Part shown: one piece after another, positions 29,472 to 43,723 of the stretch
Layout of the letters: every line of letters begins with the position of its first letter
How positions within the stretch are numbered: position 1 is the first letter of the stretch
Origin: Escherichia virus TH15
Sequence record: MT446392.1
Direction: 5' to 3' (one strand)
Length of the DNA: 64,000 nucleotides
Notes under the pieces: model-generated
The model's input: the letters and a program-made list of their open reading frames with translations, nothing else
Databases searched by the model: none
Told to the model about the DNA's origin: nothing
Translations under genes and position numbers: made by a program

Positions 29472-29843
29472 ATGATGGAAACTGGTAAATTTTATACATT
29501 AGACCCTGCTGCCAAAAAACAATTCATCGCTGGTAGTCCTGATGACAATTCGCGCATGGTCAAGCTGATGGGACAACATGGCAGTTCCTTCAAAGTCCTG
29601 GATATGTGCTATATTGATGGCGATTATTTTGTCGAAAAAGTTGAAATGAAAGATGGCACCATCCTTGATAGTATGGATGGTGCTGATGAGTACTTTGAAC
29701 TCGCTGAGTGGGAATTCCGTCACTTCCTGGAAGTGGATGAAGCTCCAGCTCCTGTTGTTGACACGCAAACCATTCATGTGCAAGTCAATCACAAAAATGC
29801 TGCTGAAGTCATTGCCCTGATTAAAGCTACCTTTGGAATTTAA
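29472..29843 (+). CDS. Hypothetical early protein (paralog family member A)
   Basis: GKFYTLDPAAKKQFIAG and DEYFELAEWEF shared with the ORFs at 30166 and 43181; own promoter cassette upstream. Confidence 0.5.
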   Translation: MMETGKFYTLDPAAKKQFIAGSPDDNSRMVKLMGQHGSSFKVLDMCYIDGDYFVEKVEMKDGTILDSMDGADEYFELAEWEFRHFLEVDEAPAPVVDTQTIHVQVNHKNAAEVIALIKATFGI

Positions 29844-30106
29844 TATGACTAAAGATGATTTCCTGGATGCAGTAGAAAAAGCCAGCGAACAGTTTGAAGT
29901 GATGGGTGTACGTGTCCATAAAGACCGAAATTACGGACTTGATGTTCAAACGTATTCTCTATGGCTTGTAGGGCGAGCATAGTCTTGTAACCACTTTAGT
30001 TATGGGTGTAGATACTTATCCTTTGTTAGTCAAGTTCAGAAGTCTGGAAAAAGCTACTAAAGAAATGACCAAACTTGGTAAATGGCTCGACAAAATTTAA
30101 AAAGTT

Positions 30107-30135
30107 GTTTACAATATCTTTAAACATGATATTAT
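30107..30135 (+). promoter_or_regulatory. Early promoter (GTTTAC -35, 17-nt spacer, TATTAT -10)
   Basis: Matches the T4 early-promoter -35 consensus; followed by the agacctatcaa leader also seen at 30562. Confidence 0.55.
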
Positions 30136-30165
30136 AGACCTATCAAAACAAATGAGGAAATTAAA

Positions 30166-30528
30166 ATGGAAATCGGCAAAAAATATGAGTTCAATCCACA
30201 TCGTATTAAATCTTTCATTGATATTAGTTCATCAAATGCTAATATGGTCGACATCATCCAAGAAAATGGCGGTTGGTTTGAAGTTAAATCAATATCAAGT
30301 GCAGACGGTTATGATTATGTAACCGAAGTCATTTTTGCTAATGGCACAATCTATAATGATGATGGTATGGGTGACGAGTATTTTGAACTTAGTGAAGAAG
30401 AGTTTTATTGCTTCCGCGAATACTCCAGTTATACAAAAACACCTTCAGGAGCGGTTTCTATTAATTGTGTTGTAGATGCTAATAACGTTGACCAAATCAT
30501 TGAACTTCTACAAAAAGCTTTCAAATAG
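30166..30528 (+). CDS. Hypothetical early protein (paralog family member B)
   Basis: GKKYEFNP...DEYFELSEEEF and C-terminal IIELLQKAF parallel the ORF at 29472; own GTTTAC/TATTAT promoter. Confidence 0.5.
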   Translation: MEIGKKYEFNPHRIKSFIDISSSNANMVDIIQENGGWFEVKSISSADGYDYVTEVIFANGTIYNDDGMGDEYFELSEEEFYCFREYSSYTKTPSGAVSINCVVDANNVDQIIELLQKAFK

Positions 30529-30530
30529 CA

Positions 30531-30561
30531 GTTTACAAAGGGTCTATGGTTGAGATATTAT
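30531..30561 (+). promoter_or_regulatory. Early promoter (GTTTAC / TATTAT) with inverted repeat ggtctat / atagacc
   Basis: Sequence gtttacaaagggtctatggttgagatattatagacc. Confidence 0.5.
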
Positions 30562-30590
30562 AGACCTATCAATTACATGAGGAAAATAAA

Positions 30591-30818
30591 ATGGCTAAAG
30601 TTAATATTGATATCGTTGATTTTGAATACACTTATGAAGTTATCCGTAATCGTTATCCTTCTTTGAGTATGACTTACATCAAAGATACCCAATTCTTTAG
30701 TATCCAAATTGAAATCCAAGGTCCTCTTGAAGACCTGACTCGTTTTATGGCTGACGAGTATTGTGATGGTATGCATGCTGAAGATGCTGAATTTTATATG
30801 GGCTTAATCCAAAAATAA
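30591..30818 (+). CDS. Hypothetical early protein
   Basis: ORF with GAGGA SD and its own early promoter. Confidence 0.45.
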
Positions 30819-30820
30819 AT

Positions 30821-30851
30821 GTTTACAACAGGGCTATGGTAGTGATACTAT
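30821..30851 (+). promoter_or_regulatory. Early promoter (GTTTAC / TACTAT) with inverted repeat ggctat / atagcc
   Basis: Sequence gtttacaacagggctatggtagtgatactatagcc. Confidence 0.5.
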
Positions 30852-30877
30852 AGCCTTACCAACTTGAGGAGAATAAA

Positions 30878-41088: not shown

Positions 41089-41117
41089 TGTACAAACTCA
41101 TGGGAGCAGAGTATAAT
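41089..41117 (+). promoter_or_regulatory. Early promoter (TGTACA / TATAAT) with inverted repeat ggagc / gctcc around the -10
   Basis: 17-nt spacer; drives the ORF at 41149 and pseT. Confidence 0.5.
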
Positions 41118-41148
41118 GCTCCTACGGATAATAATTGAGGAAATAATT

Positions 41149-41460
41149 ATGAATATCTTATTAGAACCGCTATTAGAGAATTACATCAAGTGTTCAGACC
41201 ATTATGTGGATTTATGCTACGGATTGAAAATATCTGAACATGACGAAGCCGCTGGTCAGGCCTTAGATAATGCGGGTAAAGCTCTACGCAAGGCTGCTAA
41301 AGCTCAAGGTGTGGATATGGGTGAATTAAAGAACCATTTAATTATGTTCATCTCCGCCAATACTCGCCGTAAGTCAAGCAACAAGGCAGTAGCGGAACTA
41401 AATGAAGGGCGTGTTGAATTGCGCATTCAGCTCCTTAAAACTCTGTTGGGAATTAAATGA
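41149..41460 (+). CDS. Hypothetical protein (pseT.1-position)
   Basis: ATG with GAGGA SD; track start 41116 lies inside the promoter -10. Confidence 0.4.
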
Positions 41461-42365
41461 TGAAGAGAATTATTCTGACTGTTGGTTGTCCTGGTTCTGG
41501 CAAGAGCACATGGACTCGTGAATTCATCGCTAAGAACCCTGGTTATTTTAACGTCAACCGTGATGATTACCGCCAATCCATTATGGGTCATGAAGAGCGT
41601 GACGAATACAAATACACCAAGAAGAAAGAAGGTATCGTAACCTGTATGCAGTTTGATGCGGCAAAGGGTATTTTGTATGGGGGTGATTCTGTAAAGGGCG
41701 TAATTATTTCAGACACCAACCTGAATCCTGAACGTCGTCTGGCATGGGAAACCTTTGCTAAAGAATATAATTGGAAGATTGAATATAAAGTATTTGATGT
41801 TCCTTGGACTGAACTCGTTAAGCGCAACAACAAGCGCGGAACCAAAGCAGTTCCAATTGATGTTCTTCGTTCCATGTATAGTCACATGCGGGCTTATCTT
41901 GGGCTTCCAGTTTATACAGGAACTCCAGGAAAACCAAAAGCAGTCATTTTTGATGTTGATGGTACTCTGGCTAAAATGGTGGACCGTAGCCCTTATGACC
42001 TTGAAAAATGTGATACCGATATCATCAATCCAATGGTCGTTGAATTGTCCAAGATGTATGACAAACAGGGTTATCAGATTATTGTCGTCAGCGGGCGGGA
42101 ATGTGGAACTGAAGAAGACCCAATGAAATATTATTATATGACACGCAAGTGGGTCGAGGACTTCGCACAGGTGCCGTTGGTTATGCAGTGTCAACGAGTA
42201 CAAGGTGACGACCGTAAAGATGACGTTGTTAAGGAAGAAATCTTCTGGGAAAAAATTGCTCCACACTTTGATGTTAAATTAGCCGTTGACGACCGCAGTC
42301 AAGTCGTTGAGATGTGGCGTCGTATTGGTGTTGAGTGCTGGCAAGTTAACCACGGGGACTTTTAA
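41457..42365 (+). CDS. pseT: Polynucleotide 5'-kinase / 3'-phosphatase
   Basis: 302 aa versus T4 301 aa; Walker [10 protein letters not shown]; HAD-type phosphatase motif VIFDVDGTL. Confidence 0.9.
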
Positions 42366-42565
42366 TGAACAATATCGAAAAGATTTTTCGCAAGATTGAA
42401 GAAATTGAAAAAGGTTATGAATACTTTTTCAGCGTATGGCCGCTAACTGATGGACGTATCGGTCTGGATGTGATGGACTATCAAGATGAAGACAAGGTTG
42501 ATGGCGGTATCTTTACCTCCGCCACGGCCCTCCTGGACTTCCTGGAAGAGCATTATGTACGATAA
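42365..42565 (+). CDS. Hypothetical protein
   Basis: ORF coupled to the pseT stop. Confidence 0.4.
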   Translation: MNNIEKIFRKIEEIEKGYEYFFSVWPLTDGRIGLDVMDYQDEDKVDGGIFTSATALLDFLEEHYVR

Positions 42566-42770
42566 ACACGATGAAATTAAAGAGGAAGCATACGGCTTCC
42601 TTAACAAACTAGCTGGGCAAGGAATGTCACCTGCCCTGATTAATGAACTGGTAAAAATTCGTAATGATATGAACACAAGATATAAAGGTGAATATCATGT
42701 AGAGTTTGCACCGCTGGTCGAAATCACCGACCGATTCGTTGTTGATGTTCGGGTTCACACCGTTCATTAA
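42555..42770 (+). CDS. Hypothetical protein
   Basis: Internal ATG overlapping the previous ORF end. Confidence 0.35.
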   Translation: MYDKHDEIKEEAYGFLNKLAGQGMSPALINELVKIRNDMNTRYKGEYHVEFAPLVEITDRFVVDVRVHTVH

Positions 42771-42841
42771 CGCTTTAAAAATTTTATGTTATAATGGGTC
42801 TAGGTCCTTTGGATAACCCCAATAACTAAGCGAGAAAAGAA

Positions 42842-43120
42842 ATGTTTCCTACATATTCTGAAATTGTTAAAGTAGTTTTTAGTCAGATTGTATCTGACTA
42901 TCTATACGAAAGCGTCGACGTGTCGACTGAACTAAAAGTGCACGGTCGTTTGTCTGCTATTCTGGAAATCATGTTCCCGGATGCAGTTGATGCAATCACT
43001 GTTCAACTCACGCCTGGTGCGGCATTTGCAATTGTTCCATTTAAAATCGATAACCACATTTTGGCTATTTCATGCAAAATGGACTTCCAGAAACAAACGG
43101 TAGTTGTCGAAGCAATTTAA
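42842..43120 (+). CDS. Hypothetical protein
   Basis: ORF downstream of a middle-type promoter. Confidence 0.4.
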   Translation: MFPTYSEIVKVVFSQIVSDYLYESVDVSTELKVHGRLSAILEIMFPDAVDAITVQLTPGAAFAIVPFKIDNHILAISCKMDFQKQTVVVEAI

Positions 43121-43122
43121 GT

Positions 43123-43151
43123 GTTTACTTTCACCATGGATGGTGTATAAT
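43123..43151 (+). promoter_or_regulatory. Early promoter (GTTTAC / TATAAT, 17-nt spacer) with palindromic spacer caccatggatggtg
   Basis: Consensus -35 and -10 hexamers upstream of the ORF at 43181. Confidence 0.55.
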
Positions 43152-43180
43152 GAATTTCATCAACACATGAGGAAAACAAA

Positions 43181-43723
43181 ATGAGTAATTTCTTTGAAGA
43201 AGGTAAGTTTTACAAATTTGTATCTGAAAATGCCAAAAAACAGTTTGTCGCTGGTGGATGGGCAGCTAATTACCAAATTGCTAGATACATCGGTATGACT
43301 CCGTTTGAAGTTAAGATTGTCCCTGATAATATTAGCGGCGGAAGAAAGGTTTGTGAGATTCGTTTGATTGATGAAAATAATTTTGTGGATTTGGCAAAAA
43401 TATCTGATGCACAAAACAGACATCATGGAGCAATATTTGTTTCCAATGGTCCTTTGTCAGATGAATTTGAATATTTCATCCAGGTAGAAGTTGGTATTAA
43501 GCCAGAAGTTGAGCCTGTACCAGCGAAACTTGCATCAGTTTGGAAATTGCTTGTGGTTAAAAATGGCAAGATTGAGATTAACTCTCGTCATACGTCAAAA
43601 GAATACGCGGAAGACGAAGCAGAGCGGCTGTTAAACCGTGGTACTGCAGAAGATTGCTATATTATCAAGGGCGATATCACAAAAGCTTCTATCGTTAAAC
43701 AAGTAAAACAGGAGACAATCTGA
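43181..43723 (+). CDS. Hypothetical early protein (paralog family member C, extended)
   Basis: N-terminal GKFYKFVSENAKKQFVAG and DEFEYFIQVE resemble the ORFs at 29472 and 30166; own promoter with GAGGA SD. Confidence 0.5.
   Translation: MSNFFEEGKFYKFVSENAKKQFVAGGWAANYQIARYIGMTPFEVKIVPDNISGGRKVCEIRLIDENNFVDLAKISDAQNRHHGAIFVSNGPLSDEFEYFIQVEVGIKPEVEPVPAKLASVWKLLVVKNGKIEINSRHTSKEYAEDEAERLLNRGTAEDCYIIKGDITKASIVKQVKQETI

Follow-up and report, generated by a model that had tools for sequence, protein, structure and literature searches.

Three small open reading frames (ORFs) in the genome of Escherichia virus TH15 encode proteins that share a homologous N-terminal domain of about 90-100 amino acids (aa), and all three almost certainly belong to the GoF/Frd.2/MotB.1 family. 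They lie in a 64-kb stretch of sequence record MT446392.1 that holds 476 ORFs (hereafter the window), in which the + strand is the direction of early transcription. We refer to them as A (29472-29843, 123 aa), B (30166-30528, 120 aa) and C (43181-43723, 180 aa); all are on the + strand, their positions and lengths are as a preliminary description of the sequence had stated, and the genes that it used as landmarks (32, frd, pseT and cd) are borne out by Pfam matches (Table 1). The window represents a T4-like phage genome of the VR/SP18 group (Gaprivervirus, Tevenvirinae), and the regions around A, B and C are 90-96% identical to phages TH57, VR26, VR20 and SP18. B was most likely imported, on sequence evidence, from a Tequatrovirus-like phage. 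Taken together, the identity of the three proteins, their family membership and the modular origin of their genes form an account that we regard as probable.

Similarity among the three proteins

Pairwise comparison links A to each of the other two. A and B are 33% identical across 120 aa (BLASTP expect (E) value 4e-18), and their alignment score was reached in none of 3,000 shuffles (Gumbel p 7e-14). For A and C the BLASTP value is 3e-6, and the score was again reached in 0 of 3,000 shuffles (Gumbel p about 5e-6). The relationship between B and C is visible through profiles only. When hidden Markov models (HMMs) were run against the 476 ORFs of the window, the best non-self match of the C-family HMM was A (4e-4), and that of the FRD2 HMM was C (1.6e-3). 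Comparison of the C clade with the FRD2 clade by hhalign gave 92.7% with E 4e-7 from shallow alignments and 97.3% with E 1.9e-11 from diverse ones, placing C 5-108 on A 2-94. The diverse clade alignments were taken from an exhaustive HMMER search of 1.84 billion representative proteins, which supplied the diversity of the family where word-indexed protein searches gave close relatives only. The strictest test used a leave-out profile of 37 family members from which the FRD2 and C clades had both been excluded; among the window ORFs it recovered C (5e-19), B (2e-15) and A (1.5e-13), with the next ORF at 0.15.

From the pairwise and profile evidence together we conclude that the family is real and has exactly three members in the window. 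The three-way relationship proposed in the preliminary description thus receives statistical support from the profile searches. The motifs on which it had been proposed fared unevenly. The N-terminal block GKFY..AKKQF[IV]AG is present in A and C, but B retains merely GK-Y...K-FI. The DEYFEL motif is carried by A and B, but is out of register in C, whose 'DEFEYF' aligns with the E-F..F.EV motif that comes after DEYFEL in the other two; the profile alignments put EFEYFIQVE of C on EFRHFLEVD of A, and not on DEYFEL.

No fourth member was found in the window by the family HMMs (next best E 0.15-0.2), nor does T4 MotB.1 have a match there. Two other ORFs were considered and rejected. The ORF at 40344-40697 is a recurrent weak match (E 0.07-0.7) but encodes a membrane/coiled-coil protein, and its matches to the family HMMs are apparently due to coiled-coil composition. 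As a separate observation, this ORF and the one at 40694-40984 match VR26 genes annotated as PseT.3 and PseT.2, an Rz-like spanin pair. The ORF at 8073-8228 bears no real resemblance to the family. In the HMMER search of 1.84 billion proteins, a 2,414-aa RTX-like protein, P0172, matches the family profile at 6e-9 through six repeats of 'YFVESIEFSDGTVW', which resemble 'YFVEKVEMKDGTIL' in A (aa 52-65, window positions 29625-29666); Pfam HCBP_related likewise matches A weakly (0.085). The resemblance between P0172 and A is probably a convergent beta-hairpin.

Assignment to the GoF/Frd.2/MotB.1 family

Both A and B match Pfam FRD2 (PF03197) over model positions 1-95 of 96 and above its 29-bit gathering threshold (A, 7e-33 and 113.6 bits; B, 5e-36 and 123.7 bits), and both match phrog_622 (5e-35 and 5e-41, respectively). 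B, with 75.6% protein identity to T4 Frd.2, is the T4-type Frd.2 and the ortholog of T4 frd.2. A shares 97% identity with VR26 gp182, the single 'Frd.2' of that phage, and is a diverged Frd.2 lineage resident in Gaprivervirus phages. The likeness to T4 is close in some respects, as A and B match FRD2 end to end and B lies between gene 32 and frd, as it does in T4. In other respects the window differs: A forms a separate lineage with 33-35% identity to B and to T4 Frd.2; A and B types are both present, whereas T4 is limited to the B type and VR26 to the A type; and B is upstream of frd.3, whereas T4 frd.2 is downstream of it. Two deeply diverged Frd.2 lineages can coexist within one genome.

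C falls short of the Pfam FRD2 model and matches no Pfam family with E allowed up to 1, so that it is filed under the wider family only. It belongs to phrog_5804, and relatives annotate this type merely as 'similar to VR7 gp232 / JS98 gp212'. The two PHROG groups cross-match, A hitting phrog_5804 at 1e-4 and C hitting phrog_622 at 1.4e-4. Residues 11-56 of C also match phrog_2980 'goF' (8.6e-9), and its N-terminal ~45 aa match T4 GoF by BLASTP (6e-5). With hhalign, GoF aligns with FRD2 over its full length (97.5%, E 8.8e-12; GoF 5-140 on A 2-122), and the N-terminal domain of C aligns with GoF 5-90 (97.5%, E 5.4e-12). By these sequence comparisons, the C barrel is closest to GoF and A. NCBIfam returned nothing for A, B or C.

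The preliminary description had regarded the three ORFs as a family of their own. They belong instead to one described by Kim et al. in 2025, who name just three T4 proteins, GoF and Frd.2 as well as MotB.1, with a homologous N-terminal five-strand barrel, termed 'LSm-like', and variable C-terminal domains (PMC12152347). What may be new is that the gp232/gp212-type proteins represented by C, which have no Pfam family, belong to it; the finding otherwise rediscovers a published family and changes no current concept. Among the many T4 early genes without an assigned role, the GoF/Frd.2/MotB.1 family is one of the few that are multi-copy.

T4 GoF (ComC-alpha, annotated as an 'mRNA metabolism modulator') shares the N-terminal barrel with all three proteins and a short strand-helix C-terminal domain with A and B. 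It differs in having a long acidic linker, in that C carries another, larger C-terminal domain, and in its location, since goF adjoins gene 39, outside the region of the window. The rho-suppressor mutations D25Y and G84R are known for GoF only.

Predicted structure and charge

AlphaFold2 models were obtained with a mean predicted local distance difference test score (pLDDT) of 88.6 for A and 77.4 for C. The A model has an N-terminal beta-barrel (aa ~1-90; strands 7-10, 39-48, 51-59, 64-66 and 85-88), a linker of low pLDDT (91-100) and a short strand-helix C-terminal domain (aa ~99-123) with its helix at 110-121. The C model has strands at 10-13, 42-48, 55-62 and 99-102, with the fourth strand not resolved by DSSP, a linker (108-117) whose pLDDT falls below 50, and a C-terminal domain (121-163), the beta-beta-alpha-beta form of which is common to many 150-180-aa proteins of other T4-like phages. 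In the N-terminal domain the two models agree in the order of their elements (strand, two helices, two long strands, short strand, short helix, last strand; b1-a1-a2-b2-b3-..-a3-b5), with the short helix at the E-F..F motif. According to these models, the hallmark of the family is a small N-terminal beta-barrel of ~90 aa with SH3-like topology, followed by a flexible linker and a variable C-terminal domain.

A structure search with the C model returned 40 predicted viral structures at E<1e-3, all of them uncharacterised and nearly all from T4-like phages, with VR7 GoF as a weaker match (3.5e-3). No solved structure of a family relative was found by sequence. As the top 60 structural matches included neither an Hfq nor an Sm structure, 'SH3-like small barrel' fits the fold better than 'LSm'. 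In the analysis of Kim et al., FeoA-type SH3 domains form the closest structural branch; the tree of these authors comprises 210 sequences (PMC12152347). Bacterial SH3-like and Tudor-like barrels (FeoA, the CarD N-terminal domain, the UvrD/PcrA C-terminal domain and EF-P domain I) are only 6-17% identical to the family, with no sequence relationship, and they differ from it in that the family has a two-helix insertion between strands 1 and 2; no function can be transferred from them.

The proteins are strongly acidic. A has a net charge of -11 and an isoelectric point (pI) of 4.6, B has a net charge of -12, and the median pI of 90 family representatives is 4.66. By alignment, the GoF suppressor sites D25 and G84 adjoin positions that are invariant in the family, namely N29, and E82 with F86 (GoF numbering).

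Origin and movement of the gene units

Comparison with close relatives indicates that the genes have moved as small units. Exact 19-nt direct repeats (GATATTATAGACCTATCAA), spaced 426 nt apart, lie at the two ends of the B unit. VR26 is collinear with the window at 95-96% identity on both sides but lacks exactly this 426-bp unit, and its single promoter cassette aligns to both of the window cassettes, without the intervening B. The block formed by A and the adjoining gp254 homolog is collinear with VR26 at 96% but located elsewhere in VR20, where the block of B with frd.3 and the block of A with gp254 occur in reverse order relative to the window. The 5' two-thirds of B (30150-30422, 273 nt) is 92.7% identical in DNA to T4 frd.2, whereas gene 32, frd.3, frd.1 and frd are 70-78% identical to their T4 counterparts, and it is this difference that points to import of B from a Tequatrovirus-like phage, in keeping with a recent lateral exchange across genera. 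B arrived as a promoter-bearing unit, and we infer the same for C.

The promoters themselves were searched with the T4-type early consensus TTTACW-N16-18-TAYWAT. The 64 kb contain six exact matches where 0.64 would be expected by chance, and every one is on the + strand. Four lie upstream of B, frd.3, frd.1 and C, and the other two are at 47247-47274 and 53618-53646. The site upstream of A resembles the B cassette (repeat D9) but fails this consensus, so that, of the early promoters earlier claimed for each gene, those of B and C match the consensus exactly and that of A is a weaker, deviating site. One cassette, AAAAAGT-GTTTACA-spacer-TAYTAT-leader-GAGGAAA-ATG, has copies ahead of A, B, frd.3 and frd.1. 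Stem-loops are predicted in the frd.1 cassette (10-bp stem, z -2.8) and, spanning the spacer and the -10 region, in the frd.3 cassette (7-8 bp, z -1.65); the C cassette has a 5-bp stem that is not significant alone (z -1.3), while no stem-loop was predicted at the A cassette and none of note at the B cassette.

These cassettes recall the promoter early stem-loop (PeSL) elements of phages PST and T4, which have the promoter consensus TTTACW-N17-TAYWAT (PMC4122927) and are thought to mediate modular shuffling in the hyperplastic regions of T4-type phages (PMC2839356, PMC4122927). The likeness lies in repeated TTTACW-N17-TAYWAT cassettes upstream of single small ORFs in hyperplastic regions, and in their coincidence with indels and rearrangements between close relatives. 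There are also differences: the repeat in the window runs through the 5' leader and the Shine-Dalgarno sequence to the ATG, a clear stem-loop is confined to the frd.1 and frd.3 cassettes, and recombination is deduced from genome comparison. We propose that each gene rides on a small unit with its own early promoter and leader cassette (GTTTAC..TAYWAT..GAGGAAA..ATG), and that the repeated cassettes serve as substrates for recombination, by which units are inserted, deleted and reordered between phages as in PeSL-type shuffling.

The repeated acquisition suggested in the preliminary description is well supported: the copies represent old lineages, much diverged, that moved as single-gene units with promoters of their own. 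A contrary explanation would have A and B arise by a recent tandem duplication, with the likeness of A to C due to a chance short motif or a shared DNA cassette. A and B are indeed 323 bp apart on the same strand, and A and C both carry the striking string AKKQF[IV]AG. However, the identity between A and B is just 33%, and the near-identity of B to T4 DNA over 273 nt, its absence from VR26 and the different unit order in VR20 all contradict a recent duplication, while the A-C match runs over ~95 aligned columns in the profile comparisons and the leave-out profile still recovers all three proteins. Nor does a shared DNA cassette lie behind the N-terminal blocks of A and C, in which 39 of 57 nt agree and 4 of the 12 identical residues differ in codon. 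This explanation is already contradicted, and we give it a negligible chance.

Members of the family move between phage genera as single-gene promoter cassettes, and they provide a natural presence/absence series for genetics, with VR26 lacking B and T4 lacking A and C.

Possible function of the barrel

What is known of function comes from the T4 relatives. GoF is present at about 20,000 copies per cell (PMC12152347). Mutations in goF were obtained through their suppression of rho alleles restrictive for T4, and one of them, GoF(D25Y), stabilises a gene 41 leader-reporter RNA post-transcriptionally, whereas wild-type GoF and MotB.1 have no RNA-stabilising effect (PMC12152347). The C-terminal domain of MotB.1 is related to the DNA-binding one of MotB (PMC7827196). 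T4 amber mutants in goF, in frd.2 and in motB.1, and deletions of goF and motB.1, grow normally on laboratory hosts (PMC12152347). In a transcriptome-wide knockdown with dCas13d (CRISPRi-ART), T4 frd.2 alone among the genes of unknown function was scored as a fitness gene (PMC11879866).

We tentatively favour a reading, to which we give somewhat less than an even chance, in which the barrel is a protein-binding adaptor acting on mRNA metabolism or transcription-translation coupling. Docking on a protein is favoured by the acidity of the family, the inactivity of wild-type GoF compared with D25Y, the unrelated C-terminal domains and the suppressor sites near invariant positions; direct RNA binding by the wild-type barrel appears less likely. 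The combination in MotB.1 of a barrel with a MotB-like DNA-binding C-terminal domain fits a design of adaptor plus variable domain. A, B and C would be made as abundant, soluble, strongly acidic early proteins, whose barrel may dock on a component, from host or phage, that takes part in mRNA metabolism or transcription-translation coupling, thereby adjusting the fate of transcripts early in infection. Through its distinct C-terminal domain each paralog could have a partner or output of its own, and the paralogs, apparently dispensable one by one in the laboratory, would probably be partly redundant or host-conditional.

Several observations weigh against the account of homology, early cassettes and adaptor function given here. 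B and C have no pairwise similarity (BLASTP; shuffle p 0.39), and the C model is just moderately confident. The promoter consensus, exact for B and C and weak for A, is the one basis for early timing, and of the PeSL stem-loops only those of the frd.1 and frd.3 cassettes are clear, B and C having weak ones and A none. The sole phenotype in the family belongs to a gain-of-function GoF mutant, and not to A, B or C. GoF pull-downs yielded only GoF as dominant bands, with no dominant partner (PMC12152347). The CRISPRi-ART fitness call for frd.2 conflicts with the normal plating of the amber mutants; because of this conflict, the dispensability of frd.2 is not settled, and some role of frd.2 in infection may exist.

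Kim et al. hypothesised that the barrels are true LSm/Hfq-like RNA chaperones, which would contact RNA directly, perhaps in ring form, and either shield phage mRNAs or remodel them. In its favour, a bent antiparallel sheet of five strands is predicted for the N-terminal domain, a reporter RNA has a longer half-life with GoF(D25Y), and on gels both GoF and MotB.1 appear as monomer and dimer; yet the wild-type proteins have no such effect, and AlphaFold3 gives no confident homo-oligomer models for GoF or MotB.1 (PMC12152347). The strong acidity of A, B and the family argues against RNA binding. The models show no helix before strand 1 and place two helices between strands 1 and 2, the set of features of the Sm/LSm/Hfq fold proper (N-terminal helix, five strongly bent strands, Sm1/Sm2 motifs) was not found, and Pfam gave A, B and C neither an LSM nor an Hfq match with E allowed up to 1. 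We consider this hypothesis unlikely. The origin of the goF mutations as suppressors of T4-restricting rho alleles could instead suggest a Tudor-like domain that sits on RNA polymerase or on Rho-dependent termination complexes, as do the CarD N-terminal domain, Mfd RID and the UvrD/PcrA C-terminal domain, and that acts on elongation or termination. Against it, GoF(D25Y) acts post-transcriptionally in the reporter assay, no RNA polymerase subunit was among the dominant bands of the GoF pull-down, and a Pfam CarD/TRCF (CarD_TRCF_RID) hit was not obtained, which leaves this possibility with a slim chance.

The preliminary description had seen in the three genes typical host-takeover or anti-defence effectors, and they could be toxins or anti-defence proteins diversified by an arms race. 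Their place in hyperplastic early regions behind early promoters, the lineage-specific presence and absence of shuffled units, the several diverged paralogs per genome and the fitness call for T4 frd.2 are in keeping with such a role. But neither the PADLOC models nor the Pfam families of known function include one that resembles these proteins, no defence-related neighbour genes were seen, the word 'toxic' is absent from the text of Kim et al. although GoF and MotB.1 were expressed from pBAD33 (PMC12152347), and the T4 mutants described above grow normally. The one functional lead, from the GoF(D25Y) mutant, is mRNA stability. An effector role is unsupported by these results and doubtful, somewhat more so than the chaperone hypothesis. 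A further reading would make the acidic barrel a Tudor/SH3-like module for docking on the host machinery of transcription termination or RNA decay (the beta lobe of RNA polymerase, Rho, or else the degradosome), with a set of diverged barrels, differing in their C-terminal domains, traded by T4-like phages as promoter-bearing cassettes to match variation in that machinery or in the defences watching it. We rate this reading as improbable, a little below the effector role and just above the Tudor-like one. If docking on the termination or RNA-decay machinery were true, the possession of an A-type Frd.2, a B-type Frd.2 and C would amount to an adaptive widening of target range.

Distribution of the family in phages

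The family is small, with just 95 clusters (50% identity) at E<=1e-3 among the 1.84 billion proteins; these include tandem proteins with two or three barrels and many C-like proteins of 150-180 aa. The structural neighbours, too, are nearly all proteins of T4-like phages (Tevenvirinae/Straboviridae), in agreement with the family assignment. Of 50,697 phage records, 87 carry a C-type gene. In about 32 the identity is 80-95% and the phages are of the VR/SP18 type (Gaprivervirus); in about 55 it is 45-47%, mostly in JS98-like phages, and a few matches in Serratia phages are very distant; none was found in T4 at E 1e-3. Frd.2 homologs of any kind are present in 568 records, and about 66 of these have a copy of the A type (at least 60% identity).

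The family HMM identifies four genes in the complete VR26 genome: the A-type Frd.2, GoF, a C type and a 250-aa MotB.1-like protein, of which GoF and the MotB.1-like protein sit outside the region that corresponds to the window. The MotB.1-like protein (L005:7220-7972, minus strand) has two weak barrel matches, at aa ~30-112 and 113-191, and its C-terminal stretch matches Pfam motB at 2.9e-8, making it a double-barrel relative of T4 MotB.1 (119 aa).

Organization of the loci

Table 1. Positions in the window of the three ORFs, their promoters and repeats, and neighbouring genes.
Feature	Position	Strand	Evidence or remarks
gp32 (gene 32)	28445-29356		Pfam
Intrinsic-terminator-like hairpin and T-run after gene 32	29360-29381	+	9-bp stem, 5 G-C pairs, then TTTTATTTT
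Weak early-promoter-like site of A, TGTACA-17-CATAAT	29400-29428	+	9/12 matches; preceded by AAAAAGTAG
ORF A, Frd.2-family, Gaprivervirus-resident type	29472-29843	+	Pfam FRD2, phrog_622
gp254/gp183 homolog, frameshifted	29845-30100	+	Alignment with VR26, VR20
Early promoter of B, GTTTACA-16-TGATATTAT	30108-30135	+	Exact consensus match
Left 19-nt direct repeat GATATTATAGACCTATCAA, -10 region and 5' leader	30128-30146	+	Repeat family D4
ORF B, T4-type Frd.2, architecture as in A	30166-30528	+	Pfam FRD2, phrog_622
Right 19-nt direct repeat, inside frd.3 promoter cassette	30554-30572	+	Exact copy of left repeat
Dihydrofolate reductase, DHFR (frd)	31466-32047		Pfam
Polynucleotide kinase, PNKP (pseT)	41457-42365		Pfam
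Early promoter of C, GTTTACT-16-TGTATAAT	43124-43151	+	Exact consensus match; palindrome CACCATGGATGGTG in spacer
ORF C N-terminal domain (aa 1-104), predicted barrel as in A, B and GoF	43181-43492	+	hhalign, AlphaFold2
ORF C linker (aa ~105-117, low confidence) and C-terminal beta-beta-alpha-beta domain (aa ~118-165)	43493-43723	+	
dCMP deaminase (cd)	44289-44870		Pfam

The hairpin and T-run after gene 32 part that gene from the A unit. A and B had been called tandem; they share strand and neighbourhood, but are not adjacent, as a frameshifted ORF of the 84-aa type intervenes. This is the homolog of VR7 gp254 and VR26 gp183 (84 aa in relatives), in which one extra G in a G run near 29971-29973 shifts the frame, so that a stop follows at 29980; the gene is a pseudogene, or else the sequence has an error here. 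At the other locus, the stop of C overlaps the start codon of cd.2 (43720-43723; cd.2 start 43723), an overlap which suggests that one transcript from the promoter upstream of C probably carries both C and cd.2, and that their translation is probably coupled.

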